This document shows positions 8,409 through 61,421 of a stretch of 64,000 nucleotides of DNA, piece after piece. The notes beneath the pieces are model-generated. The model saw nothing but the letters and a program-made list of their open reading frames with translations. It had not been told where the DNA came from and did no database searches. Location: IMG/VR virus record IMGVR_UViG_3300017655_000001, positions 1 through 64,000 of that record. One strand, written 5' to 3'. The position numbers and the translations under genes were made by a program. Every line of letters starts with the position of its first letter. The stretch's first letter is position 1. Source of the stretch: a virus (Duplodnaviria > Caudoviricetes).

Positions 8409-8895
8409 GCTTTTGATAGAAAATTTTTATTATAGTATTCTATGTAATCAGCCGTTCCTTTAGCTCTTTCCTTATCCTTAATAGGTATTCCAACTTGGGT
8501 TACTCCTCTATTAAACCAGATATATTCGCTTGTAAAATCATTATAGTTCGGGGAGTAACCTTCATAGAAAAGCTGTTCCGCTTCTTTAAATCCATACCAC
8601 CAAGTATCTACGTTCATTTCTTGTTTCCTTAATTATCAAATCCCCAATACCCTTCCCAATCATCTACGTCAAAATAATTGTAGAAAAGTTGATCAAGATA
8701 CCCCGCATATTTACCTTCGTAAAACATAACAGGTTCGTATCCAAACGTTACATCATCCACTTTAAACTTATTAAAGTCTCTTCCAGTGTTTTTGCAAACC
8801 CATGCAATCTCTTTAGTGTATTGCTTAATGTCAGCCCATCGTTGGCCTTTAAGATCTACTGTTGGTAGATTTTGTTCATAGAATTTGTATTTCAC
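8405..8895 (-). other. Two small hypothetical CDS (8405-8617, 8629-8895)
   Basis: Tightly packed ORFs coupled to the 8892 gene. Confidence 0.7.
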
Positions 8896-10244
8896 TTCTT
8901 ATCCACCTTACAAAAAGTTTTATCTCCCAAGACATCTTCCCAAGCTGAATACATAGCCTCTCTCAAATCATTTTCAGCAGATGCTTTTACAAGACAGCTA
9001 TCGTGATACACCAAAACTGTATGATCTTTCTGCACCATCCTTTCAATAATACCCATCATAATATCAGAGTCAATCTTTTGTAGAACAACTCCCTTATCTG
9101 AGTAGAAACTTGAGCGAATCAAATCATTATGTTGCCTAATCGCTGTCAAAATCTTCTTAACTGGAATAGACCCTACAATACCCACAAACTGTTTATCAAT
9201 CTGATCTTTCTTAACATCTTCTCTAACCTTACCACTCATAGCCCCAACAGCCTGCGCTTCATCCACTGAGTTGATACCAATAAGGATAGCAAGCTTTGCT
9301 AGATTTCGCAATGGATTATGTTTCTTGCCAATCAACTTACTGTGATTATTAATCTCCTCTTCATCTGTCTCTACAAACGATAGGTCAGCATTATACGGAT
9401 TAAAGTCTTCACCAAATAATTCATAAGCATTTGTACCATCTTTTAAAAGCATCTGATAGCAAATACTAGGATGGATGGCATTGAAGTCAAGTTCAACAAC
9501 AGGTTCACCATCAATTTCTAGATACTCATTACGCAAACGTTGGGGCAGAAGTTGTACACCACCACCTGCTGCATAGATACGGCCAGCGACGTGCATTGTG
9601 TCTAGGAAAACACGTTTATATTCTACTGTTGCGATTTGTTTACCGTTATACTTAATGTCTGCACCTTTTAAACTGCTGTTGTATGTTTCCATCTTTTCTC
9701 TAGCCTCTTTAATGCCAATTTTTCCACGAGTACCTAGTATGTCTCCGGTCTTCCTATCTCTTACTTCTACAGAATCTTCTACATGCCACTCATCAAACAG
9801 ATCAACCATGTTATCACTATCCCAAAGATCAATCAATCTTTTTCTGAAGATTACACAAGATGAGATTACATATTCAGGAACTCGTTTACCTTTATCGTAT
9901 CTCCAAGAGTCAACAAAGCCTTTGTAAATATGAATATAAGATTTTTCTTCTAGGAATTGGAGAAGACCCTTAACACCTCTATACCCAATCTTAGTTTTGT
10001 TATTCGTGTAATAGGATGGATCTAGACTAACCCTCATCCCTTCTGCTGTGTTGTTCATAGCACGAGCAAAATTAGACACAAACCATTTAACAGCAGTATC
10101 CCATTTACCACCACTATGTTCATTCAGTGAATCAGTGATGTGTTGATAATACTGAGACTGATGGTAGTGTAGGTAGGTGTTAGAGCAAGACAGAGAAATA
10201 GCATGTCTATCTAAAGCACTCATCTTACTTAAATCATAAATCAT
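8892..10244 (-). CDS. Family A polymerase-like (palm/fingers only) protein, paralogue 1
   Basis: GRIYA..Q.LP..R, motif A-like VELDFNAIHP, motif B-like RNLAKLAILIG and motif C-like VYHDS. No exonuclease domain evident. Confidence 0.6.
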   Translation of the reverse strand: MIYDLSKMSALDRHAISLSCSNTYLHYHQSQYYQHITDSLNEHSGGKWDTAVKWFVSNFARAMNNTAEGMRVSLDPSYYTNNKTKIGYRGVKGLLQFLEEKSYIHIYKGFVDSWRYDKGKRVPEYVISSCVIFRKRLIDLWDSDNMVDLFDEWHVEDSVEVRDRKTGDILGTRGKIGIKEAREKMETYNSSLKGADIKYNGKQIATVEYKRVFLDTMHVAGRIYAAGGGVQLLPQRLRNEYLEIDGEPVVELDFNAIHPSICYQMLLKDGTNAYELFGEDFNPYNADLSFVETDEEEINNHSKLIGKKHNPLRNLAKLAILIGINSVDEAQAVGAMSGKVREDVKKDQIDKQFVGIVGSIPVKKILTAIRQHNDLIRSSFYSDKGVVLQKIDSDIMMGIIERMVQKDHTVLVYHDSCLVKASAENDLREAMYSAWEDVLGDKTFCKVDKK

Positions 10245-10488
10245 CTTATCCTCATAGTTGTGTGTGTTGTAATGTTAGTAGATAGAGAGATGTTATAGCT
10301 ATGCTAGTATTGTCAAACGCTGAAGTCTACAACCCGCATGGATAAAGGGCTACAGAGGAGATGTGCTCTCCATAGTTCATTTTTTGATCAATTGTAAACC
10401 TAACAACCTCTCGTTGCATAGGGAAGACATTACCATAGAACGACAGCTTGTCAAGAACATTCCACACAAAAATATTTTCCATTACCCC

Positions 10489-11730: not shown

Positions 11731-12312
11731 ATGAAATATGAACTTCAAATGATTCATCCTTTCACACGAGAACCTGTTGTATTCCAGATCAGTGAATTCG
11801 TTCACAAGGCTTATCAGTTTGCAAAGAAAGCCCACCAAGGTCAGAAGAGGAAATATACGGGTGAAGATTATATAAATCACCCTGTAGAAGTTATGAGTAT
11901 TGTTTCAACTGTAACACACACAGAAGAAATGCTTGCTGCTGCTCTACTTCATGATAATTTTGAAGATTGCGGTATCACTCTTTACCAAATAAAGAAAGAA
12001 TTTGGTTGGCAAGTTATGGCTTATGTAAACGACCTGTCAGATGTATCCAAGCCGGAAGACGGGAACCGCGAATTACGCAAGAAGCTAGATCGTGATTGGA
12101 TCGCTGAAGCTTATCCTGCTTCTAAAACAATCAAGCTTGCAGACCTCATCAGCAATAGCCGTTCAATCGTAAAACACGATAAAGATTTTGCTCGTGTGTA
12201 CATCAAAGAGAAAGAATTGCTTCTTGAGGTGTTGACAGAGGGTGATGCTACATTATACGCTAAAGCTAAGCAAATCGTTGAAGAAGCTAAAAAGGAGTTG
12301 GAATTAGAATGA
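11731..12312 (+). CDS. Stand-alone RelA/SpoT-type HD hydrolase (Mesh1/SAH-like)
   Basis: AYQFAKKAH.GQKRK..GE.YI.HP, AALLHDNFED and KTIKLADLISN. Confidence 0.88.
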   Translation: MKYELQMIHPFTREPVVFQISEFVHKAYQFAKKAHQGQKRKYTGEDYINHPVEVMSIVSTVTHTEEMLAAALLHDNFEDCGITLYQIKKEFGWQVMAYVNDLSDVSKPEDGNRELRKKLDRDWIAEAYPASKTIKLADLISNSRSIVKHDKDFARVYIKEKELLLEVLTEGDATLYAKAKQIVEEAKKELELE

Positions 12313-27083: not shown

Positions 27084-28238
27084 ATGGAAGAGTGGAAAGT
27101 AGTACCAGAGTATTCTAAATACGAGGCATCAACAACAGGTGTTATTAGAGACTCACAAACAAAAGAGTTGCGTCCATTAACTTGGAATAATAATTTCCTG
27201 TGTACGAATATGCGTAGAGATGATGGTGTCAAGGTTTTGTGTAAAGTTCACAGGATTGTAGCTCTGACTTTCTTAGATAATCCTGAGCAGGCTCATAACG
27301 TAGTGCACATCAATGAGGATAGGTCTGACAACTCAGTAGGTAATCTGAAATGGAAACCAAAACTTGTTAAAGAGGTTGTTTCTAAAGAGATGCCAACACT
27401 AACCTTCCTAGGTAAGACATACACTTATGTGGAGTTTTGTGAACAGGCTAAGTGTGAAATATCTATGCTCAAACACAGGCTCAACAAGGCTGGTTGGAGT
27501 GTAAGAGAGTGTTTTACAGGTATTAAAGAGTTCACTGGAGATGGTTATTCCGGTGAGGGTATGTGGTTTACAAACAAGAAAGAGTATCAAGCTTGGATGT
27601 GGTTAAAAGAGCTTGAGAAAAGAGAACTAAAACGTAAGCAAAAGGAAGACGACAAACAACAACGAATTAAAGAACGTGCTGAGTATAAGAAGTATGGAGT
27701 AGGGGTATTTGAGAACTTTCCTGTGAAGGGGATCGTTGATCGTATTACTACGAAAGCTTATAGAGCCTGGGATGCAATGTTAGGAAGATGCTATGCACCT
27801 AATAAGAAAAGCTACCAATCTTATGGTGCAAAAGGTGTTTACGTTTGCGACTCTTGGTTATATTTTCAGGAATATGTTAAATGGTATGACTCACAGTACA
27901 AAGAAGATGATTGGCATGTAGACAAGGACATCTTGGTAAAGGGTAATAAAATCTATTCTCCAGAGACTTGTGTAATGGTGCCTCCCGAAGTGAATACATT
28001 CTTTGCAAGTTTAACTAGAGATGGCGAGACAGTTAAGGGTTTTATTCAGAATGGTCCGGGATTCACATCAGGGGTGTACATTGAAGGAGAGAAGATTCAG
28101 AAGTATTTTAGAAGTGAGCAAGAAGCCTCTGAATACTATTGGACTAATAAACGTCAAGCAGCTTACAATCTAACCCTTAAATACCCTAATATTGACCAAA
28201 GGGTTAAAGACAAACTGCTTAGACTGGAAATATCCTAA
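27084..28238 (+). CDS. Homing endonuclease (NUMOD4/HNH plus a second nuclease-like module)
   Basis: EEWKVVPEYSKYEAS.TG, VHRIVA.TF, VVHINEDRSDNSV.NLKW; then WDAMLGRCY, VCDSWLYFQ and WHVDKDILV...YSPETCVMVP. Confidence 0.88.
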   Translation: MEEWKVVPEYSKYEASTTGVIRDSQTKELRPLTWNNNFLCTNMRRDDGVKVLCKVHRIVALTFLDNPEQAHNVVHINEDRSDNSVGNLKWKPKLVKEVVSKEMPTLTFLGKTYTYVEFCEQAKCEISMLKHRLNKAGWSVRECFTGIKEFTGDGYSGEGMWFTNKKEYQAWMWLKELEKRELKRKQKEDDKQQRIKERAEYKKYGVGVFENFPVKGIVDRITTKAYRAWDAMLGRCYAPNKKSYQSYGAKGVYVCDSWLYFQEYVKWYDSQYKEDDWHVDKDILVKGNKIYSPETCVMVPPEVNTFFASLTRDGETVKGFIQNGPGFTSGVYIEGEKIQKYFRSEQEASEYYWTNKRQAAYNLTLKYPNIDQRVKDKLLRLEIS

Positions 28239-36555: not shown

Positions 36556-38899
36556 TTACTCTACTCCCAATTCTTTATGTGCTTTCATTAACAAATCACC
36601 AAGTGCTTTCGATTGCATAATAAAGCCATTTACATTCTTAGCTTCAGAGGCATTCATATAAAGCTTGTAATGAGACGTAGTCTCACACTTCTGAATGTGA
36701 AACCCTGCTTGGGTAAGTTGTGATTGGATTCGTGAACTGAAGGTTTTCATTGCCCGAACTCTTTCTTCAAAGCTTCGAATTGCCTACGTCGCTCTTCTTT
36801 TTGTTTCTTTGCTTCTGCATTCTTTGCAGCGTTACGTTTATTGAAGATGATTTCCCAATCTTTCAAATCTTCCTTTTCATTCTTGATACGTCCTTGCATT
36901 TCTTCGTCATCTTCCCAAACTTCGTACCTAATAAAATAGTGGCAATCCTCATAACCTGTCCACTCGTATTGAAGTGACCATGAGATATACTTACCATATT
37001 TTTCCTCAAGCTCTTCAAGATATTTCTTAAGCTCAACCAGATTACCTTCTGGCCAATCTGTTCCTTCTTCTTTTGTAAGGATTTTACGAGTTGTGTTTAC
37101 AACAGGCTTTTTATTCTCGTCAAAGTTATATTCAGTAATCATGCAATCTCTCCTTAAAGCATTTCTGTTTTGTTAAATGGATTATGGCGCACAAACAAAA
37201 GCCTGTCAAGAAATAAATTCATTAAAAGAATCTATAAGAAGACAGGCTTTGATAGTGATTTTAATCACATTCTTTCTTTGTGAATGTGCGAACAACTACA
37301 AGCTTTTCTTCCTCTTTACACTCTAGATCGTAAGCATATTCAATCCAATCAATCTCCTCTGCATTGCCATGTTTTCCGCCGCCATACCAATAAACCCAAC
37401 CAACCCATTCGCCGTTGGGTAGTTGTGCTGCTACAGACTGCGACTCATAGTGTCGTGAATAAGGAGCTTCTACGTCTGTTTGCACCTCACCTTCTCGAAA
37501 TTCGTACAGATAATCGTAAAGCTCATCGCTGTATTCATCCCAAAGCTCTTCTACTTCATCTTGTGTAAGAGTTGGTGAAATGTCTTCTTCTTTCTCTACA
37601 CCCCAATATTGTGCAAGAATACAATACTTAATTTTAAATTCTGATTTCATTTATAAACTACCTTTGTAGTGACTACTTGTTCTTCATAACGACGAAGCCC
37701 TTCTTGTTGCACTTCAATATCCATACGACCGTTATCGTAATCTGAATACCAACTCACGAGGGCGTAAGTGTCATCATCCTTTTTGAAATAAGAGCTTACA
37801 TTAGCACCACGTTTAAATACTTCCTCCTCACGATCATACTCTGTGTCTGAGTCGTAACCATTATCTTCTGCCCAATCATACCACTTACTATTGCTGTCAA
37901 GATAAATGCTCATTCTTCTTCTCCTATATCAAATTCAAGATGTTCAATAATAGTTTCAATTTCATCTGTCACTGAATAATCATATTGCAATTCTTTCTCC
38001 AACAGATGTTTGGCGTTTTGTAGCAGTTGAATTGTGTTTTCAATAATTTGCTTGCGTTGGCTCATACGAATTTGTCCTTTGGAATATCGACAAACAAAGC
38101 AGGGAAAGTTCCTACATCTTCCATCCATTCTCCGCTCACTTCAAACTCCTCTACTTCTGTAATGCCCTGCATTTTGATATAATCAAGCCAGTCGTTAACG
38201 GCAACAGAATGTCCTTCTAAATCTAGCTTACCGTCGATGTAAACACCACACCATTCCCCATATTCGTTTGTAACGTAAGTTAGCTTCATTCTTCCTCTTC
38301 TCCATAATATTCTGTCAGAAGTTCATCCATGCAATTAGTACACATATAGAACTTACCCCAATGACTGCGATCTACAAAAGCTTTCTCGAAATAAGCAAAG
38401 CTCCCAACAGGAATATTGTGTGGTGTTTTACCCGGAGCTAGTGATAACCAGCATTCATGCTCTTTACGTGTCTTCACGATTTTCTTTGTTTGACAACTGA
38501 TTTCAGATTCATCGCCTTGAAACCAATCTTCATTAAGGTAATCTTCGTGTGTAAACTTCACTTCTTAATCTCCTTCAAGATATTCTCCAAAATCTTACTC
38601 TGCTTCTCATTCTCAATCAAGATGCTATGAATAAGGATGTAATAACCACTCATCAAGCTTGCGACAACAATTCCAGCAATCAAGAATACAATTCCTTGCC
38701 ATACACTGCCCGCCATAATTGTAATACCAGAAAAGCATAGAACAATCACAAATAGAGCGATGATAAGGAAATTGTTTGTTTTTAGTACAATGTTTTTAAT
38801 TTCGTTCATTTTATTTCTCCTTATTTTCCCATTTAGCGTCATACTGTTCGAGCAGATGACAACGAAGGTTTGCATCCATCCAATCAAAATCATCTTCAA
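36556..38899 (-). other. Run of hypothetical CDS (36556, 36747, 37261, 37647, 37910, 38062, 38286, 38558)
   Basis: Contiguous ORFs; promoter TTGACA-17-CATAAT at 37181-37209. Confidence 0.72.
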
Positions 38900-39212
38900 T
38901 GTTCAAGATTGTTTTTGTAGCACCAACATCTTCAATCTCATCCTTTTCTTCTTGAGACAGCATAGCATAGGATTCAAAATTTACAAATACAATTTCGTCA
39001 GCCCACCAAATTAAAGCTTGTGTAATTGGAATAAGAGCAAATTCTTTATCTGCTCCTACAGCCCTTGTATTGAATCCGTATTTGATATGCAAGCAATTGG
39101 CCAGGGTCGGAGATCTTAAAAGACCAGCAGAACAAACACACAAAACTTTCTTTGCTTTGGTTTGAAACCTGTTCCCTACGTTAGCAAGTTGATTCTTCTT
39201 CCCTTTAATCAT
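38811..39212 (-). CDS. Low-molecular-weight phosphatase-like protein (CX5R)
   Basis: VLCVCSAGLLRSPT P-loop, WADEIVF and LNIEDDF. Confidence 0.8.
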   Translation of the reverse strand: MIKGKKNQLANVGNRFQTKAKKVLCVCSAGLLRSPTLANCLHIKYGFNTRAVGADKEFALIPITQALIWWADEIVFVNFESYAMLSQEEKDEIEDVGATKTILNIEDDFDWMDANLRCHLLEQYDAKWENKEK

Positions 39213-40538
39213 TTACTTCTCCTCAACTTTACAAAACTTAATTGAACCGAGCTGTTTGTACCAAGCATTAATCATAAACTGCTTAACCTGATCTTTAGCC
39301 GACTTCTTGCACATCAGCCCATCGTGCCAAGGTAGTAGCACCTCGTTGATAGCCAATGTGTCACAGATTACCTTATCCATAATCTCGCTGTCAACAAATT
39401 GTAGATAAACACCACAATCAGAGAAAAACTTATCTGAAATCAATGAGTTATGCTTTTGCACGGACTCCATAACCTGCTTGAAGTCAACCTCATATAGGCC
39501 ATAATACTTAGATTTGTTTTCATCTGCCGTGTTCCACAGCGTTCTATCTTGGCCAAATTTCTGTGAGAGTGCGTTAGCAGCCTCCTTAATACTAACAGCA
39601 TTCAGCCCAATCATAACAGCCATTTTGATGAGGTTGCGTGCTGGATCATATTTTTGCTTACCGTGGCGCATCTTAAACATCTCAACAGCGGATGGGTCAA
39701 CATGGTATTCCCATAAGTCCACTCCATATGGATCAAAGCCTTCTGGTAGTTGTGCATTGATCTGCTCATAACAAACGTTAGCATGCATTGCAGAGAAATC
39801 AAGGGTTGCTAACTCTTCACCATCAATTTCTAAGAATGGCTGCAAGCTACTCTCCATGGTTTGGATACCGCCTACTGTATTGTACCAACGCCCACCAGTG
39901 GTCAGATTGTTAATGAACACGCGCTTATAGTTCTGGTCTGGTAGATCGATACCTTTCAGCGAAATTCGAGATTCAATCAAAGCAGTATTAAACATTTCAA
40001 TTGTGTTTTTCATCTGACCAACTCCGCTTACGCCTTGGGTATTCATAAGTTTCTTAGTTCCTCGCTCTTTAATTTCTAAGTCAGCATCAACTTTAGACGA
40101 CAAAACCTTATGTAAATCAATATCTTCAAACAGATGTATTAACTTCTCTTTTACCTCTGTGATCGATGTTTCAAATTCTTCTGCTTGTCCATGTACATAC
40201 TTCTTAACACCGCCTATATACAAATCAACGTAACCATCTTGTTCAAGCTTATCCAAAATTCGCATCATTCGGATATAAGAGATTTCTTGTGGGTTATGGT
40301 TATATGTGTTCTTATTCCTTGGAACCTTAATACCCTTAGCCCCGATCTTCAACATCCTAGCTGTGTTGGTGACTAAAGACCTTATTTCTTTTTCTTCCTT
40401 TTTACCATAGATTGATAGTAGATGCAATACTATTTTCTCTAAGCTTCTTGGTTTGTTGTAATAAATATTGAAATGAGTGGATGTTACCTCCTTCCACATC
40501 ATCTCTTGTTCATCTACATCTTTAATGTTAATCTTCAA
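39213..40538 (-). CDS. Family A polymerase-like protein, paralogue 2
   Basis: YKRVF...GGRWY..GGIQ, IDGEELATLDFSAMHA, RNLIKMAVMIG and PWHDG. Collinear with the 8892 protein. Confidence 0.6.
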   Translation of the reverse strand: MKINIKDVDEQEMMWKEVTSTHFNIYYNKPRSLEKIVLHLLSIYGKKEEKEIRSLVTNTARMLKIGAKGIKVPRNKNTYNHNPQEISYIRMMRILDKLEQDGYVDLYIGGVKKYVHGQAEEFETSITEVKEKLIHLFEDIDLHKVLSSKVDADLEIKERGTKKLMNTQGVSGVGQMKNTIEMFNTALIESRISLKGIDLPDQNYKRVFINNLTTGGRWYNTVGGIQTMESSLQPFLEIDGEELATLDFSAMHANVCYEQINAQLPEGFDPYGVDLWEYHVDPSAVEMFKMRHGKQKYDPARNLIKMAVMIGLNAVSIKEAANALSQKFGQDRTLWNTADENKSKYYGLYEVDFKQVMESVQKHNSLISDKFFSDCGVYLQFVDSEIMDKVICDTLAINEVLLPWHDGLMCKKSAKDQVKQFMINAWYKQLGSIKFCKVEEK

Positions 40539-40803
40539 TACTCTTACATCCTCTGATGATAGATAATAATAATGGTTAGTGATAGGTATGTAGTGCTATA
40601 TAAGATATAATCCCGTAAAAACAGTTAAACCCTTGCAGGAGTAAGGCTGTAGCGATTCTGACCCCTGAAAAGGTTGCTTGTAAAGCAGAGATATGTCCAT
40701 CTATTCTACTACAATACGCACAACAGTCTAATTCAATCTCTCTATCATTCTCACACAATTCAATAGAAACATTCTATTTGTATTCCTTGGTAAATGTGTT
40801 AAA

Positions 40804-43479
40804 TTGGTGTCTATCGAAACAAATCAAAGGAAACACATCATGTCTGATTTACTGCGTATGGATTTTATCAACAGTCTTCCACAACCTCTGTGGGTGAGGC
40901 AATGGGGCAGAGAATCGTTTGACTGGCCTGTTTACGACATTTGTGTAGAAACAGGTCTTATCCGAATCGACGTATGCGGTAAACTGGGCAAGCTTCACAT
41001 CTGCGATGTTGCGCAATTCAAAGACGATTACGGCACTGTTTATGATTCAGATGTGTTCTACAGCGATTACGAAGAAAATCCTTGACAGACACAGCCGAAT
41101 GGTGTTTAATTAACACATAGGCAGACAAACACAAGCTCTCGGAATCATCGGAGATGAACATCATGGAATACACGATTTCTATTGACAACCTCATCATCAC
41201 AGCAGACGTACACGCTTACGAAACATCTAGTGGTTATAAAGAGATTGAATATACAATCGAACGTGTATTGGAGCTTGACGAGGATGACATTCCTTATGCA
41301 CTTGACAGCAAAGAAAGTGATGATATTCTGTGTGGGCTTGAGGATGTTGTGAAAACTAAATTGATTGAAGCTATTGAAAAGGGGGAATGAATTGTGAAAG
41401 AGCTTTATGCAGAGATTGAGCGATTCCAAAAACTGAAAGAACGTACAGGTACAAACAAGAGCAGTAGCTATTCTGTGCTATTCCGATTTGATCCGTGGTC
41501 TGATAATGTAACAATCGAACTTGGTGGTTACGATGTGGGTAGCTGGCCACGACATGTTTATGTTGACTCGACTAAAGAGACTCTTCTCCAAGATTTGAAA
41601 GCTAAAGTAGATGAAGCTTATCTTGTTGTGGAAGAAGATGAAAAGGAGAGTGAATTGTGAGCATGAACCTTGCACTCAAGAAAGGTAAGATTGTAGATCA
41701 CGTCATCTTGTACCAAACTCCTACATGGGTCACTAATGAAGCATTAGAATCCAGTAACACGTTTGAATATTACAAGAATTGGGTTCTTGAAGGGCGTCAG
41801 GGTAGGTTTTATGACGCAACACTTGAACACTTTGCTGTTGTTCAAGAACTGCTGGACGATGGTTGGAAGTTTATAATGGTTTAAAACCTCCGTTCCGCGC
41901 CCAAAAACGTACATAGAAACGTTTTCTTGAAGAATCTGTGTACGTAGTAGGGAAGAGAGGAAAACGTTTTAAATAGGCTGTTTTACTAAGGAGAATTTTA
42001 TGGATTTGCATGCAGAAATTATGAATATTCCGGCAAACATTGTACTGACTGGACCCGAAGGTGTTGGTAACGTACACTCAAACCCCTACATCGCCTATAA
42101 AGAGGGTCATAGGGATGCACGACATGATGCTGCTGAATTGGCTTTGAAAGCACAAGCTAGGATTGAGGAGCTTGAGGACATTTTAGCAGCTTTTGTAAAC
42201 TGGCAGACAGACGCAGAAGGTAAGCTGTCAATGCTAGACGATGATGAGCTTTGGCTGAAAGCTGAAGATGTTCTGAATAAGAAATGATAACCGTCATCAG
42301 CTACATCGCATTGCGTTATTTCTTTGACTCTGATTGGAGTGGTATGCTATTGTTGTTGCCAATCTTCTTGGACTTGACTATTTTGAATAAATTTTGAGGG
42401 GTGTTTTATGGCTAGAATTAAATTGCAGTACTTTAAGTCTTCAGGTAAGTGGGGTTACGAAGGCGAACTTGAGTGGGCAGACGATAAATCAATGTACGGT
42501 CTTATTGATCACGTTAAAGACCTAAATCGAAATCGTAAACTGCCAGGTTTGGCTTCTGGTTCTTGGGACGGCCCTATTTACTTAAATACTGACGAACACC
42601 CTATGGGTTATCCTCTCCTGATTTTGGAGTAAATCAATGACTGACAACAATTGGTTTGACATTAAAGTAAAAGCACAATACGATCATATTCAAGAGTTGG
42701 AAGCAACTGTTCGGGAATATGAAAAGTCTGAAGAATGCTGGAATGCTTTGCTTTCCTATGTCCTCGGTCAAGGGTACACTGAAGAGCCTCTTCAATTCCT
42801 GCGCTGCTGGAATGAAGGTGACTTTGATGCATTGCGTGAAGAATGGCCTGATGCACCTAAAGAGATTTATTATGCAGATCCTTTGAATGAGGAACAGAAA
42901 TGAACCAAACAGAACACAAAAGCATTACAGCTTTGATGAAAGCTATTAAGAAAGATATGGAAAGCGGAATTACACAAATTGCTGTGATTGTTGAAGAAGG
43001 CGAAGATAAAGTAGAGAAGAAGTATATTTATAGTCGTCCGTTTGTTAATGAAATTAAGGGAGAAGAGTGATGGCTCATATTTATGAGATTTATTATGAGA
43101 ATAAACAAGGTGATATTGTACACTGTCAAGATGTATATGATGAGCAAGAAGCCCTTCATGAAATTACATCTCTTACAAACGAGTTCCCAGAGAATGAGTA
43201 CTGGTATGAGACTATTTTTGAGGATGAGCAGTGACGTTTACAATTAACATAGAAAATGGAACAAGCCTATATACAGCAGAAGACCTTATTCGCTATAATG
43301 ATGCAGGCTTGCTTTATTGTGGGGATGTTTGTCTAAGTAGTGTGATTGATAAGATTGTTGAGTATTATGAAGAGAAGCTTTCTGAGATGAAAGAGAGTGA
43401 GGGTGAGACTTATTCGGATTATCAAGAAGGCTATCAAGCGGCTGTAAGTGAAATTCGTGGATTTGTTGATAATATGTGA
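40804..43479 (+). other. Run of small hypothetical CDS (40840, 41154, 41394, 41657, 42000, 42408, 42637, 43231 and shorter)
   Basis: Contiguous ORFs with RBSs; promoter TTGACA-17-TTTAAT at 41082-41110. Confidence 0.7.
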
Positions 43480-45218
43480 GGGGAGAAGTGTTGAGTAAGG
43501 ATTATGTAATTGGAAAGAATCCTTGCCCTCGCTGTCGGCGCAGGGGGCAAGACAGGGCAGGCAATAACTTCCACTTCTATGGAGAAGGTCTTGGGGGTTA
43601 TTGCCATGCTTGTGAATACACTGTTCCTAGCGATGATTGGCTAGCAGAACATGGTGAAATTAAAGAAGATGAAGAGGAGTTTGAAGTAGTGGGTAGTTAT
43701 TTTGATAAAGAAGTGAATGAAAAGATTAAGAAGCAAACCGGGGTGGACAGTAAAAATTATCGCGGAATTCGTACTGAAATTTCACGACCATTCGGGGTTC
43801 GTTATGCCTATTCTGAAGAAGACGGCAGTGTAGTTTCTACTTATTATCCAACCACGCATGAATATGAGATTTCAGGGTATAAAGTTCGTCACCATCCTAA
43901 GCGGTTTGAAGGGATTGGGGAGACTGGTAAGGATTGTGAACTATTCGGGCAATTTCGTTTTAAAACGAATTCGGGAACTGTATTGATTTGTGGTGGAGAG
44001 CATGATACCCTGGCTGCTTTTCAGATGCTTTCTGATGCACAAAAGAATAAACAGTATGATCCTGTAGCTGTTGTTAGTCCTACTATTGGTGAATCTGGAG
44101 CTTATAAACAAATTCAGAAACAATACAACTTCTTCCAGCAAGCTAAGAAGATTGTTGTAGCAATGGATTCCGATAAGGCTGGCGAAGAAGCAGCAGAAAA
44201 GATTGTTAAGGTTCTTCCTCGGGGCAAAGTTTTCATTATGAAGATGCGCCTAAAAGATCCTAATCAATATGTAGTGGAAGGCCGGGAACAAGATTTTATT
44301 AATGATTTCTGGCAAGCAAAGCCATATAGCCCAGCAGGTGTTCACGCATCAAGTGGACTTCTGGCAGCAGCTATGGAATACGCGAACTTAAATCAGCTTA
44401 CGCTTCCCCCTTTCATGGCAAAAGCACAAGCAATGTTTGGTGGCGGTTTGGTTAAAAACGAGCTAACTTGCTGTTTTGCAAAGACCTCTGTAGGTAAAAG
44501 CTTGTTTGTAGACTCTATGGTGGTTCATTGGGTTTTGAATGAACCAACTGAAGTCGTAGGTGTCTTATCTCTTGAAGCTACCAAGGATAAATGGGCAACA
44601 AATATCCTTTCAAACTACCTTGGCGTGCGACTGATTAACTTGAAGGGCGAAGAACGGAAGGAGTATCTGTCTCGTGAGGATGTGAAAGCCAAAGCTGAAC
44701 CGTTCTTAATGAAAGAGGATGGTACTCCACGTTTTTGGGTTTGCGATGAACGTGGCGCGTCTGTTGATGTAGTCAAGGAAAAAATCCTTGAAATGATTAT
44801 TCAACTGGGCGTGACTATCCTTGTTGCAGACGTATATTCAGACTTAATGGCAGGCCTCAGTCTGGAGGCGCAAGAGGAGTTGGTAGCTTGGTTTAAAAAA
44901 CTTATCAAAGAATACCCACAAGTAAGTGTAATTCTTGTTTGTCACACTCGGAAAACTGACAACAACTCCCAGTTGACTGAAACTGATATTATTGGCACAA
45001 GTACAATCATGAAGTCTGCTGCACAAACATTCAGTCTTGAGCGAGACAAGCTTGCAGAAGATGAGATGACACGTAATTGTACCCGTGTTACAATTCACAA
45101 GAATCGTCACTTTTCAGATACTGGACCTGCTGGGGTGGTTTATTTTGATAAGGACACCAGTCGGCTGTATGATCTTGATGAATATATGCAACAACATCCA
45201 GAAATTTCGGAGTTTTAA
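43476..45218 (+). CDS. Primase-helicase (T7 gp4-like)
   Basis: Zn ribbon CPRC...CHAC, TOPRIM ICGGEHD...AMDSDKAGEEA, Walker A FAKTSVGKS, LSLE, LVCH and LERDK. Confidence 0.93.
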   Translation: MRGEVLSKDYVIGKNPCPRCRRRGQDRAGNNFHFYGEGLGGYCHACEYTVPSDDWLAEHGEIKEDEEEFEVVGSYFDKEVNEKIKKQTGVDSKNYRGIRTEISRPFGVRYAYSEEDGSVVSTYYPTTHEYEISGYKVRHHPKRFEGIGETGKDCELFGQFRFKTNSGTVLICGGEHDTLAAFQMLSDAQKNKQYDPVAVVSPTIGESGAYKQIQKQYNFFQQAKKIVVAMDSDKAGEEAAEKIVKVLPRGKVFIMKMRLKDPNQYVVEGREQDFINDFWQAKPYSPAGVHASSGLLAAAMEYANLNQLTLPPFMAKAQAMFGGGLVKNELTCCFAKTSVGKSLFVDSMVVHWVLNEPTEVVGVLSLEATKDKWATNILSNYLGVRLINLKGEERKEYLSREDVKAKAEPFLMKEDGTPRFWVCDERGASVDVVKEKILEMIIQLGVTILVADVYSDLMAGLSLEAQEELVAWFKKLIKEYPQVSVILVCHTRKTDNNSQLTETDIIGTSTIMKSAAQTFSLERDKLAEDEMTRNCTRVTIHKNRHFSDTGPAGVVYFDKDTSRLYDLDEYMQQHPEISEF

Positions 45219-45764
45219 ATGGTCGATTGGCGTGAAAGAGTCGAGTATTCAGAGGATAGTCCTTCTGGATTAATTTGGAAAACGAGTGGCCGTAATAGCA
45301 AAGTAGGAACTTCCGTAGGATACATCAGGACATCGAAAAGGGGAGTCCAAAGATGGCAAACCATGATCGGCAGCAAATCATACTTGTGCCATAGACTTGT
45401 ATGGGAACTTTTCCATGGCCCTATTGAAGATGGTCTTACGATTGATCATTTTGATAGAAATCCTTTAAATAATAGGATTGAGAATCTAAGATGCGTTCCA
45501 AATGAAATCAATGTAAGGAATAAAGGGGCCTATAGAAATTCAAAATCTGGAATAACAGGCATATGCTTTTGGACGAGCAGGAATGGGGATGAATACGTTA
45601 CTGCTCAGTGGCAGGATTTAGAAGGGAATAGAAAAGGTAAAAGGTTTCAAATAAAGAAACATGGAAAAGAAGAGGCAATCCGATTAGCTATTGAATATCG
45701 GAATGAGCAAATTAGGTTGCTGAATTTAGAGGGTGCCGGATATACTGAAGCCCACGGAACATAA
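45219..45764 (+). CDS. HNH homing endonuclease
   Basis: YLCHRLVWELFHG, TIDHFDRNPLNNRIENLR, N and SGITGI. Confidence 0.9.
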   Translation: MVDWRERVEYSEDSPSGLIWKTSGRNSKVGTSVGYIRTSKRGVQRWQTMIGSKSYLCHRLVWELFHGPIEDGLTIDHFDRNPLNNRIENLRCVPNEINVRNKGAYRNSKSGITGICFWTSRNGDEYVTAQWQDLEGNRKGKRFQIKKHGKEEAIRLAIEYRNEQIRLLNLEGAGYTEAHGT

Positions 45765-57178: not shown

Positions 57179-59353
57179 GTGAAAGTAACAAAGCGTGACG
57201 GTAGTTTAGAGAATTTTGAAGTAGAGAAAATTAAACAAGTTGTGGAATGGGCATGTGAGGGTTTGGATGCTAACCCTCTAGCTCTTGAGTCTAAGTTTGA
57301 TGAATTTCTTTATGATGGTATCAGCACTACAACCCTACAGCAAAATCTGATTGAGCATTCTAAAGCTCTTGTGTCGCCCCAAGAATCTGATTGGGTGTTT
57401 GTAGCTGGTCGCCTAAAGACTATGAATCGCTGGGCAGATACTCGGTCTTATAACATCAGCTTTAAAGAGTTTGTTAAGGAACAAGTAGAACTTGGGGTTT
57501 GGAAGCATCCTGCATTCACCTCATATTCTGACGAAGAACTTGATGAAATTGATACATGGATTGATGAGTCCTATGACCTTAATCATTCATACGCTTCTGT
57601 AGTAACAGCAGAGAGTAAGTATCTGATGCAGAATGAATGCCTACAGCATATGTTTGCAGGCGAAGCTATGATCCTTGCTTATGTAGAGAAGAAAGAAGAT
57701 AGAATGAAGTGGTGTAAAGTCTTCTTTGATAAGATCCGTATTCGTCGGCAAAGCTTAGCTAGTCCATGGCTTTCGAACCTACGGGCTAATGGTAACATTA
57801 GTAGCTGCTTTATTATTGCTCCAAAAGATGATTTATCAAGCATTTTTGACAACAATAAGAACGCTGCGATGATTAGTAAGGCTGGGGGTGGTCTTGGTTA
57901 TTATCTCGGTTTCTTGCGTGCTGCTGGCTCTGATTTGATGGGCAATAAAGGAGCTGCAACTGGTGTTATTGGTTGGGTGAAGATTCTTAACGACATTGCT
58001 GTGTTTGTAAACCAAGGCGGTAAACGTGCAGGTGCCATCACTCCAGCACTTCCCGTTTGGCATGCAGACATTTCAGAGTTCCTTGATCTTCAAACTGAAG
58101 CTGGCGATCAGCGACGTAAGGCACATGATGTAATGCTCCAAGTTTGCGTTCCTGATAAATTCATGGAACTGAAAGACGATCCTCTTGCTACATGGTACAC
58201 TTTCTGTCCTTATGAAGTTAAACAAAAACTAGATATTGATTTACCTGAGTGTTACGATGTTCAGTTTGAAGAAGCTTACAACACTTGCGTAGAAGCTGCT
58301 GATCGTGGATTGCTGAAGGTAGTTCGTAAGTACAATGCGAAAGAATTGTTTAAGAAACTGATGAAAGTAGCTTTTGAAACTGGTCTCCCTTATCTTGCAT
58401 TTACTGATGAAATTAACCGTAATAACCCAAACAAACACGAAGGTAATATCTATTGCGTTAACCTGTGTGTTGAATCGTTTAGTGTCATGAAGCCAGATGA
58501 GTACGCACACACTTGCAACTTACTGTCCTTGGTTACTGGGCGTATTCCGATGGAAGAACTTTCAAACGAAGCTGAAGTTGCTGTACGAATGCTGGACAAT
58601 GGTATTGAATTAACAGCGCCTCCCGTGAAGGAAAGTGCTAATCACAACTCCCGTTATCGTACAGTTGGCGTAGGAATTTTAGGTCTTCACGACATCATTG
58701 CACGAGAAGGTGTATCATTCCTGAACACTAAGTTTGTAACTGAAGTTGCAGAAAGGATTATGTATGGTTGTGTGAAAGGTAGTATTGAACTGGCTAAAGA
58801 GCGTGGTCCATATCCTGCCTTCAAAGGTAGTATGTGGGATACAGGAGAGATGATTTCCAAGTTCAATAAAGAGAGTGTTTGTGATGATTTAGACTGGCTT
58901 GCGTTGCAGAAAGAGATTGACCAGTACGGTATTCGTAATAGTCAAATGACGAGCCCAGCGCCTAATACTACAACTGCTTTGTTTATGGATGCTGGTCCTA
59001 GCTGGACCCCTGTATATTCAGCAATGTACTTTGAAGATAATAAAGATGGTCCTATGCCCGTAGTTGCAATGTATTTGAAAGATAATCCTCTTTCTTACGC
59101 ACGTAACGTTACTAAGTACAAACCGTGGGAACTTACCTCTGTTGTATCCGCATTGCAGAAGTTTACAGATACTGGTATTAGTGCTGAGTATCTGATGGAT
59201 AAGAACCAAGAAGGCTTTAAGGCTAAGTGGTTGTGGGATACTTGGGATCAGGCTTGGAAAAAGAAAACAAAGGCTGTATACTATATCCGAACCATCAAGA
59301 AAGGTGAGGAACTTGTTAAAGATAATGGTGCTTGTGTTGGTTGCGCTGGATAA
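57179..59353 (+). CDS. nrdA: Ribonucleotide reductase class Ia alpha subunit
   Basis: ATP cone MKVTKRDG, ISSCF, NQGGKRAG, NLCVE, CNL, APNTTT and KAVYYIR. Confidence 0.96.
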   Translation: MKVTKRDGSLENFEVEKIKQVVEWACEGLDANPLALESKFDEFLYDGISTTTLQQNLIEHSKALVSPQESDWVFVAGRLKTMNRWADTRSYNISFKEFVKEQVELGVWKHPAFTSYSDEELDEIDTWIDESYDLNHSYASVVTAESKYLMQNECLQHMFAGEAMILAYVEKKEDRMKWCKVFFDKIRIRRQSLASPWLSNLRANGNISSCFIIAPKDDLSSIFDNNKNAAMISKAGGGLGYYLGFLRAAGSDLMGNKGAATGVIGWVKILNDIAVFVNQGGKRAGAITPALPVWHADISEFLDLQTEAGDQRRKAHDVMLQVCVPDKFMELKDDPLATWYTFCPYEVKQKLDIDLPECYDVQFEEAYNTCVEAADRGLLKVVRKYNAKELFKKLMKVAFETGLPYLAFTDEINRNNPNKHEGNIYCVNLCVESFSVMKPDEYAHTCNLLSLVTGRIPMEELSNEAEVAVRMLDNGIELTAPPVKESANHNSRYRTVGVGILGLHDIIAREGVSFLNTKFVTEVAERIMYGCVKGSIELAKERGPYPAFKGSMWDTGEMISKFNKESVCDDLDWLALQKEIDQYGIRNSQMTSPAPNTTTALFMDAGPSWTPVYSAMYFEDNKDGPMPVVAMYLKDNPLSYARNVTKYKPWELTSVVSALQKFTDTGISAEYLMDKNQEGFKAKWLWDTWDQAWKKKTKAVYYIRTIKKGEELVKDNGACVGCAG

Positions 59354-59364
59354 GGAGATTGATT

Positions 59365-60372
59365 TTGCTAGAACGTGTAAAACTTTTTAACGAGCTTGGA
59401 GGAGACTCGTTCTCCGACCAAGCTTTGTTTGGTGGTAATCCTACAGGTATTGCTAACCTTAACAACATTCGATATGGCTGGGTAAACCCTCTTTACCGCA
59501 CTATGGTGGGCAACTTCTGGCTTCCTCAAAAGGTAAGCTTAGTAGAAGACAAGATTAGCGTAAAAACACTTACAGAAGATGAAGACAAGGCAGTACGAGA
59601 TACACTATCCTTTCTTATCTTCCTTGACAGTTTCCAAGTAAACAACCTGCCAAATATTGCGGATTACGTTACTAACCCTGCTGTTAAGAATCTTCTCACT
59701 ATTCAAGCTTTCCAAGAAGTTATTCATAGTGAAACTTATCAGTATATTATGGAAGCTTTGTATCCAAGTGAAGATCGAGATGCTATTTATAACCGGTGGC
59801 GTAACAATGAAGCACTGAAACAGCGTAATAAGTTTGTAGCAAGTATTGCTGAAGAGTTCGCAGAACACAAGACAACTGAAAATCTTCATAAAATCTTGGT
59901 TGCTAACTTGGTGCTTGAAGGTGTTTATTTTTACCAAGGATTTAATCTGTTTGACCAGCTCGCACACCGAGGGAAGATTGTAGGTACGGCTAAAGAGATT
60001 GATTATATTCGCCGTGATGAGCTTACTCATGTAGGCTTGTTCATGAATATGATTAAAGAAGTTAAACCTTCTGTTGAAATCGTCCACTCTATTTTTGACG
60101 AAGGAGTGAAGCAAGAGATTGCTCACTGTAAAACAACCTACGGTAATCGTATTCTAGGTATCTCTGAAACCAGCAGCGAGAAGTATGTTAAATGGCTAGG
60201 TAATGATCGACTTGCTCGGATTGGATACCCTCCTTTGTACGAGAACGTAGAAGATCCCTATAAACATCTAACGCAGTCTAACAAGGAAGGCAATAAGAAA
60301 GAAAACTTCTTTGAAACGAGCGTCACCAGCTATGACATGGCTGATTCTGTGGATGGCTGGGATGAGCTATGA
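59365..60372 (+). CDS. nrdB: Ribonucleotide reductase class Ia beta subunit
   Basis: NFWLP, FQEVIHSETY, LEGVYFYQGF, RDELTH and NFFE....Y. Probable TTG start at 59365 after AGGAG. Confidence 0.95.
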   Translation: MLERVKLFNELGGDSFSDQALFGGNPTGIANLNNIRYGWVNPLYRTMVGNFWLPQKVSLVEDKISVKTLTEDEDKAVRDTLSFLIFLDSFQVNNLPNIADYVTNPAVKNLLTIQAFQEVIHSETYQYIMEALYPSEDRDAIYNRWRNNEALKQRNKFVASIAEEFAEHKTTENLHKILVANLVLEGVYFYQGFNLFDQLAHRGKIVGTAKEIDYIRRDELTHVGLFMNMIKEVKPSVEIVHSIFDEGVKQEIAHCKTTYGNRILGISETSSEKYVKWLGNDRLARIGYPPLYENVEDPYKHLTQSNKEGNKKENFFETSVTSYDMADSVDGWDEL

Positions 60373-60379
60373 AATCTGC

Positions 60380-60408
60380 TTGACACACCCTAAAATCTAA
60401 TCTATCAT
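60380..60408 (+). promoter_or_regulatory. Sigma70-like promoter
   Basis: TTGACA-17-TATCAT. Confidence 0.75.
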
Positions 60409-60462
60409 TGAGGCATGTTCTGAAAAGGACATTGCCTCTTTCTTTTTGTTTGGAGAAACGAA

Positions 60463-61421
60463 ATGATGAATGAACTCAACTTTTGGTCTGTGGTATTTCT
60501 AATCGTTGCTGTACCAACTGGTTTAGTCTATTGGTGGATGACCTCCTCTTGTGCTGAGCGAGGAGAGATGGAAGGGTACGCAATCACTAAAACTGTTGCT
60601 ACTAAATGCTATGGTAGCAATGACGGTAAAGATTGGCATAAAATTTGGTACTGAGGGCTACAGAAGTGACTTGGAACTACAGACTAGCTAAAAATAAAGA
60701 TGGATTTTATGGGATTGTTGAAGTATATTACGACAAGGAGGGAGAAGTGACAGCTTGGACACAAGATTTTATTGATCCAAATCATTGGGAAAACCCTGAA
60801 GATGTGAAGAACACATTACAAAAGATGTTAGAGGCTTTTGATAAACCTTTGTTTGAGGAGATTATTCGATGAAAATTATGACTAAGGTATTACTATCTTC
60901 GCTTGGCTTTGTAGTTCTGGGCGCTATTTTGATTTGCATTCCTAGTACAATGCCCGCCGGTATTGTTTCTCTTTGTGTGGGTACAGTCGGTTTTATGATG
61001 GCACCGCTGATCAGCATGGGAATTGAGGACTCAAAATGAGAGGAAATCCATTCGTAAATCTTGTTGCAATCCTTGTAATGCTTATCTCTATTCTTACAGC
61101 AGGGAAAGTGTGGATTGATTGGAAAGTTAGTAAAGGAGAACCTGTAAGGAAAGAGGTTGTTGTTCCTCAGAAACCTCAGTATGATAAAAGTAAATTTGAA
61201 ACAAGTGTGAAGGAAACTAAAGAATGATTATGAATTTTGACGAGATCGAGCGGAGAAGTATTAAAGAATTGAAACAGACAATGGAGCGGCTTACTGATCT
61301 TAATGGTAAAACTTACGACTACTACTTTAAAGTCTATCCCGGCTCAATCGGACCGACTATTAAATTTGTATGTGAAGAGCTTGACATAGAAAAAGATATC
61401 ACCAACTATAATAATTGGTAA
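60463..61421 (+). other. Five small CDS, several with TM segments (60463, 60645, about 60869, 61036, 61224)
   Basis: Coupled ORFs. Confidence 0.7.

Follow-up and report, generated by a model that had tools for sequence, protein, structure and literature searches.

Two divPolA2 proteins with a predicted family A polymerase fold head the divergent junctions of a phage genome and may initiate DNA synthesis beside their own genes

The stretch of DNA analyzed here (the window) comprises positions 1 to 64,000 of IMG/VR virus record IMGVR_UViG_3300017655_000001 (Duplodnaviria; Caudoviricetes). The whole genome is complete, with 87,438 bp and terminal repeats, of which the window is the first 64 kb; the record ends with a 123-bp direct repeat. 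Two open reading frames (ORFs) on the minus strand of the window encode related proteins, which we call copy 1 (positions 8892–10244, 450 amino acids, ATG start) and copy 2 (39213–40538, 441 amino acids, TTG start). An earlier reading made from the sequence alone (the original prediction) had described the two as collinear paralogues related to family A polymerases. BLASTP bears out the paralogy, with the copies aligning from end to end (29% identity over 430 columns, E 4e-65), and all four of the motif strings quoted in that reading occur in both ORFs. Copy 1 has a predicted winged-helix-like domain (residues ~30–150) followed by a family A palm and fingers (~150–450), and its key residues are R222, D253 (motif A), H258, R313 and K317 (motif B), N325, and H414-D415 (motif C). 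Every motif residue is kept in copy 2 (GGRWY, LDFSAMH, RNLIKMAVMIGLN, and WHDG). A family profile search of the complete genome found exactly these two copies.

Both ORFs are members of divPolA2, a family already named in 2024 (Yutin, Tolstoy, Mutz, Wolf, Krupovic, Koonin 2024, Virol J 21:200; PMC11348598), and the window does not represent a new kind of system. As described in that paper (section 'Two novel phage PolAs'), divPolA2 occurs in 110 Rheinheimera barbaviruses and in other phages, is without exonuclease and thumb, and is present as one to three paralogues per genome. Its structural matches were to DNA polymerases and to mitochondrial and N4 RNA polymerases alike, and a repair DNA polymerase or an RNA polymerase was proposed (PMC11348598). 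The window's proteins share with the published ones the palm and fingers, the lack of an exonuclease and of a canonical thumb, and an N-terminal globular domain, and their genome likewise encodes a regular DNA polymerase and more than one paralogue. The regular polymerase is a PolA here, whereas in barbaviruses it is a PolB.

By tblastn, the family was found in 243 phage records, of which 115 are from Rheinheimera Barba phages (E 2e-11, 85% coverage); the other matches include many Vibrio, Aeromonas, Shewanella, and Pseudoalteromonas phages, with 85–100% of the length covered. Megablast of the region against phage records gave no match. Both proteins match PHROG 4756, which is of unknown function (E 8e-85 and 6e-82), their neighbors in BFVD include a Barba31A protein (E 1e-23), and matches in the ESM Atlas were to unnamed clusters only. 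The family comprises 8,200 cluster representatives (50% identity) at E <= 1e-3 and 5,701 at E <= 1e-10, and has members in marine, compost, and gut phages, ICP1 among them. We found no biochemistry of any divPolA2 member in the searchable literature, where the name is used by the 2024 paper and its preprint only. The family is thus uncharacterized, as the original prediction had it, in the biochemical sense, but it had been described and named.

The structure of copy 1 was predicted with AlphaFold2 from an alignment of 18 sequences (mean predicted local distance difference test score (pLDDT) 89.8, predicted template modeling score 0.85), and the model has the palm and fingers of a family A polymerase. 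The top matches of this model in a Foldseek search of the PDB were all family A polymerases (Aquifex Pol I, the apicoplast polymerase apPol, Bst, and Klenow; E ~1e-5). VIA-align, which is independent of Foldseek, matched the model both to DNA polymerases (Z 13.6 for apPol, 13.0 for Aquifex Pol I, 11.6 for T7 DNA polymerase, 11.5 for Pol nu, and 10.3 for Pol theta) and to RNA polymerases (Z 12.6 for yeast mitochondrial RNA polymerase, 10.6 for T7 RNA polymerase, and 6.9 for N4 RNAPII), with the alignments spanning residues ~150–450 of copy 1. The canonical thumb is absent, its place being taken by a single helix (residues 178–193), as judged from the secondary-structure layout only. The model shows no exonuclease domain, in keeping with the original prediction, and in the family alignment no acidic residue is conserved across residues 1 to ~245, none being invariant before residue 247.

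Only the fold and the motifs reveal the tie to family A DNA polymerases. A Pfam scan of both proteins found no family at E <= 10, including DNA_pol_A and RNA_pol. In a profile search of PDB sequences, Pol I was found at E 0.32 (Aquifex Pol I) with the motifs in correct register: GR..GGGVQLLPQ..LDYSAIHP lies opposite TGR..NVQNVP..ADFSQIELR of Aquifex Pol I, and YHDS lies opposite VHDE. Comparison of the family alignment by hhalign with T7 RNA polymerase, T7 DNA polymerase, and the window's regular PolA gave probabilities below 1%, these single-sequence targets being weak and little informative. The spacing of the motifs is nearer to that of Pol I than to that of T7 RNA polymerase. The original prediction had matched its four motif strings to the spacing of motifs A, B, and C; of these strings, LDF.A.H is motif A, RNL.K is motif B, and HD is motif C. 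KRVF..GR.Y..GG.Q is not motif A, and corresponds in the alignment to Aquifex Pol I to the region that precedes motif A and carries the β-hairpin arginine ('TGR...NLQNIP').

Conservation was evaluated in an alignment of 141 diverse relatives, one per 50%-identity cluster, which have a median identity of 28% to copy 1. R222, D253, K317, H414, and D415 are conserved in all 141, and R313 in 139. The original prediction had staked itself on a polymerase palm in the predicted structure and on conservation of both catalytic aspartates across homologues. With the palm predicted and the aspartates kept in 141 of 141 relatives, the two ORFs very probably encode active polymerases.

The positions associated with nucleotide selection were aligned by motif and not by superposition, and are given in the established numbering of Klenow (E710, F762, and Y766) and the textbook numbering of T7 RNA polymerase (Met635 and Tyr639). 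The position of the steric gate, E710, is occupied by His in 136 of the 141 relatives, and that of F762 by Leu or Met in 136; in T7 RNA polymerase, the latter position is Met635. The position equivalent to Y766 of Klenow and Tyr639 of T7 RNA polymerase is Asn in 126 relatives and Tyr or Phe in the remaining 15, which supports the register of the alignment. As aligned, the divPolA2 active site appears unlike that of a DNA-only polymerase. CcPol, a mini-PolA of SCCmec that uses deoxynucleoside triphosphates (dNTPs), retains the Glu and Phe equivalents of E710 and F762 (PMC7581432).

The N-terminal domain was also modeled alone (residues 1–205, pLDDT 81). All of the top 50 structural neighbors of residues ~30–150 are winged-helix proteins, and these include MarR, HxlR, PadR, the C-terminal domain of Crp, CodY, kleisin, eS10, eS19, the winged-helix domains of Cdc6/ORC, and T4 MotA. 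The domain therefore looks like a winged helix in the model, which falls short of proving that it binds DNA. This likeness, at a modest Z, extends beyond what was published for divPolA2, in which the N-terminal domain had no detectable similarity.

On the circular map of the genome, the genes form five strand blocks, which result in exactly two divergent and two convergent junctions. The divergent junctions are located at 10.3 and 40.7 kb, and each is headed on the minus strand by a divPolA2 gene; the convergent junctions are at ~28.4 and 61.5 kb. That each ORF heads a minus-strand operon beside a divergent intergenic region had been noted from the sequence, along with a distance of about 30 kb between them, and the start codons are indeed separated by 30.3 kb. 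If the two divergent junctions are origins, all genes would be co-oriented with fork movement. Five relatives carry one or two divPolA2 copies, and the orthologue of copy 1 keeps its position at the junction in most relatives of ~84–92 kb. The genes downstream of divPolA2 are small and variable, each being common to at most 1–5 of 26 related loci.

A conserved element is located upstream of the divPolA2 gene. For copy 1, the element occupies positions 10307–10357 on the minus strand, with the start codon ~90 nt downstream. Its sense-strand sequence consists of CTGTAGCCC-N11-GGGTTGTAG (10325–10357), followed after 13 nt by ACAATAC (10307–10313), and the leader between element and gene (10245–10306) is G-poor and includes CTATCTACTAAC. 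A diverged counterpart is found upstream of copy 2, at positions 40623–40654 on the minus strand (sense strand GCTACAGCCTTACTCCTGCAAGGGTTTAAC). Global alignment of the upstream regions of the two copies was unconvincing, with only short blocks in common. Across loci, the layout towards the gene is (CTACAG)CCC-N8-11-GGSYTGTAG(AG), a spacer of 13–15 nt, ACAATAC or GAATAC, a G-poor leader of ~60–70 nt, and a ribosome-binding site.

In 14 of 29 loci, the sense strand carries the 9-mer GG[GC][CT]TGTAG at 69–115 nt before the start codon; in one further locus it is present with a single mismatch, and two carry an opposite-strand copy. Elsewhere there are 11 exact matches in 726 kb, both strands counted, and within the window the 9-mer is essentially confined to the two divPolA2 genes. 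It is also present upstream of a very divergent second paralogue in another phage. The published neighborhood of divPolA2 is variable, whereas the element is conserved here, as is the junction position in the ~90-kb phages. The window thereby supplies a clean case, in which a complete genome has two copies, both at divergent junctions and each with a recognizable cis element.

Two other identities were considered for the element. An RNA hairpin was not supported, as single-sequence folds were no better than those of shuffled sequences in most loci (z -0.04 to -2.4) and the 5' arm is non-complementary in the largest clade; the element is therefore treated as a sequence motif and not as a demonstrated structure. 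A sigma-70 promoter was not supported either, since the distance from TGTAG to the -10-like ACAAT (12–14 nt) is too short and a consensus scan gave no good minus-strand promoter there.

The reading we prefer, to which we would assign slightly less than an even chance, is that divPolA2 acts as a site-specific initiating polymerase and synthesizes the first primer at the element beside its own gene. The N-terminal domain would place the enzyme on the specific DNA element adjoining its gene, and the polymerase core would start a short chain de novo, with ribonucleotides or mixed nucleotides as the probable substrates. The regular PolA of the phage (45779–47887, plus strand) and its gp4-like helicase-primase (43476–45218, plus strand) would then extend this chain, and replication would be launched from that site. 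The two paralogues would serve two sites, one per divergent junction. If initiation at the enzyme's own site is true, PolA-fold primases would go from a single SCCmec example to a major phage mechanism, and the choice of origin in such phages would be accounted for. A stricter form of this proposal is possible, if doubtful: that divPolA2 combines initiator and primase in one polypeptide, with the winged-helix domain recognizing an origin element and the PolA-fold core starting the chain. Each paralogue would then have an origin to itself, giving two or three private origins in phages with that many copies, and divPolA2 would constitute a third, PolA-based class of replication-initiating primase that is widespread in lytic phages.

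A homologue in the tractable cholera phage ICP1 bears on the link to replication. ICP1 ORF100 (555 amino acids) is homologous to divPolA2 over its full length (hhalign probability 99.8%, E 7.5e-30) and is located at 58,951–60,618 in ICP1_2006_E (MH310934). In a CRISPR-deleted derivative of this phage, early bidirectional (theta) replication was reported to have its coverage peak 'near the 60 kb position' (Barth et al., PMC7145576). A literature search turned up neither work on ICP1 gp100/ORF100 nor a more precise map of the ICP1 origin. Together with the upstream element, the junction position, and the winged-helix-like domain, the ICP1 origin lends circumstantial support to the role in cis at origins that the original prediction had put forward. 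ORF100 has an N-terminal extension of ~150 residues that is absent from the window's proteins, and five genes precede it in an operon that begins at a divergent junction ~1.4 kb upstream.

To our knowledge, CcPol-MP is the only biochemical precedent for a primase with a PolA fold. In CcPol-MP, which is encoded on the mobile element SCCmec, a truncated family A polymerase begins new DNA chains without a primer at a location adjoining its own operon (Bebel et al. 2020, PMC7581432; Rice 2023, PMC10061031). It differs from divPolA2 in that CcPol requires the adjacent small partner MP, which has an oligonucleotide-binding (OB) fold, whereas divPolA2 has no conserved neighbor. No OB-fold partner resembling a single-stranded DNA-binding protein was found by conservation of neighbors (26 loci) or by Pfam, a structure-based OB-fold search not having been made. 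CcPol also keeps the equivalents of E710 and F762 and uses dNTPs, whereas divPolA2 has His and Leu/Met at these positions, and the gene for CcPol sits beside that of its helicase, unlike the divPolA2 gene.

A number of observations weigh against the proposal of a site-specific initiating polymerase. The association of divPolA2 with the junctions is not obligate: in two relatives (G001 and G005), which carry a single copy, the second divergent junction is without divPolA2, and the gene is not the first in its block in G005 and in distant phages of 115–123 kb. No conserved helicase, single-stranded DNA-binding protein, or other partner gene is located beside divPolA2, and the downstream ORFs have no Pfam match. 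The junctions contain short two-copy repeats only, with no iterons or obvious AT-rich unwinding element, and the GC-skew minima found at them are confounded by the direction of transcription. The genome already has a Toprim/DnaB primase-helicase, so that a further primase would be required for origin-specific priming alone. The element could be a promoter or an autoregulatory operator only. The winged-helix match is modest (Z 5.0–5.7, Foldseek E of at least 0.09), and the co-localization of ORF100 with the ICP1 coverage peak is coarse, as the phage used there was without CRISPR/cas2-3 and its coordinates are possibly offset by a few kb.

We consider it rather unlikely that the two proteins are instead single-subunit RNA polymerases dedicated to one or a few specific transcription units, with the winged-helix-like domain recognizing a promoter and each paralogue having a promoter of its own. 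Likenesses to T7-like RNA polymerases and N4 RNAPII exist: besides the shared palm and fingers, the Z scores for the mitochondrial and T7 enzymes are as high as those for DNA polymerases (N4 RNAPII reaching 6.9), the steric-gate Glu is replaced by His, the Leu or Met at the F762 position is comparable to Met635 of T7 RNA polymerase, and the GRxY hairpin motif resembles GRVY of the T7 enzyme. The same idea was raised by Yutin et al. (PMC11348598). However, divPolA2 is half the size of the T7-like enzymes and has no thumb, T7-type N-terminal domain, promoter-specificity loop, intercalating hairpin, or Pfam RNA_pol match. The Tyr639 position is Asn in most relatives, and the Pol I-like motif spacing also speaks against an RNA polymerase.

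The intergenic sequences argue in the same direction. Other operons do not share the upstream element, no multi-copy promoter was found in the genome, and among 50 intergenic gaps no 9- or 10-mer recurs except ribosome-binding-site words. Matches of 10–11 out of 12 to TTGACA-17-TATAAT are present in many gaps, 16–54 nt before the next gene (scored with no shuffle control). This suggests transcription of much of the genome by the host polymerase. A general transcription role for divPolA2 is unlikely, and the minimal RNA polymerase offered by the original prediction is disfavored in such a role. Were the proteins RNA polymerases, they would be the smallest known of the single-subunit type.

Very unlikely, in our judgment, is a function as accessory repair, gap-filling, or translesion DNA polymerases that resemble Pol theta and Pol nu and work on damaged phage DNA or its recombination intermediates. 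This option is named by Yutin et al. (PMC11348598) and is consistent with the exonuclease-less family A fold, the structural matches to Pol theta and Pol nu, and the Pol I-like spacing of the motifs. It leaves unexplained, however, the winged-helix-like domain, the gene-linked element, the position at the head of an operon, and the presence of one to three diverged paralogues. The residues that provide dNTP selectivity (the Glu steric gate and Phe/Tyr762) are also absent, whereas CcPol, which uses dNTPs, keeps both.

We give little credence to the idea that the proteins are autoregulated DNA-binding regulators, or nucleotidyl-transferases with a non-replicative product (template-independent or anti-defense nucleic acid), whose element is their own operator or promoter: the element does lie in the gene's own promoter/leader and has in several loci an imperfect inverted repeat typical of operators, and the downstream genes are small, variable, early-type ORFs of a kind often involved in host takeover, but the absolute conservation of a template-dependent active site (the primer/template-contacting Arg, RxxxK, and both Asp) argues for templated polymerization.

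The proposed initiating polymerase can also be compared with TV-Pols, for which a primase-polymerase role in mobile elements and viruses has been predicted (Iyer, Abhiman, Aravind 2008; PMC2579912). Like divPolA2, TV-Pols have a minimal family A-like core with the β-hairpin Arg, two catalytic Asp, and RxxxK in the fingers, and some also bear an extra N-terminal domain. Unlike TV-Pols, the divPolA2 genes studied here have no linkage to a D5-like helicase, resolvase, integrase, or transposase. The TV-Pol thumb has two helices and its N-terminal domain is all-helical, whereas divPolA2 has at most one thumb helix and an α/β winged-helix-like domain. The divPolA2 family profile weakly matches gp030 of Microcystis phage Ma-LMM01 (hmmsearch E 3e-4 per genome; hhalign probability 49%, E 1.7e-4, over 76 columns), with GGGxQ and D-x4-H in common. 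This protein, whose gene adjoins transposases, we assume to be the TV-Pol cited from that phage. The apparent sequence link to TV-Pols is below the thresholds of confident homology.

The regular family A DNA polymerase of the window has 702 amino acids and matches PF00476 (E 5e-13) over residues 364–700. Its identity as a family A polymerase is thus as had been stated, but the description of it as complete is not confirmed by a match that covers these residues only; its N-terminal 360 residues are without an assigned exonuclease domain. The primase-helicase has Toprim and DnaB_C domain matches (T7 gp4-type), and its DnaB-type helicase is the only helicase found in the window. Between these two genes is one of the homing-endonuclease type with HNH_3 and AP2 matches (45219–45764, plus strand), and another HNH_3 ORF is located at 27084–28238. 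The early rightward operon adjoining the copy 1 junction includes a gene (11731–12312, plus strand) for a 193-amino acid protein with an HD domain of the RelA/SpoT type (Pfam HD_4, E 2.7e-16), which may be a phage (p)ppGpp hydrolase.

Directly after the stop codon of copy 2 begins an ORF of 133 amino acids (38811–39212, minus strand). It has no Pfam match at E <= 0.01 and carries the sequence CVCSAGLLRS, a C-X5-R(S/T) signature typical of low-molecular-weight phosphatases and ArsC. A homologue with 71% identity occurs in a related locus (L020), where its gene lies immediately upstream of the polymerase gene and in the opposite orientation.

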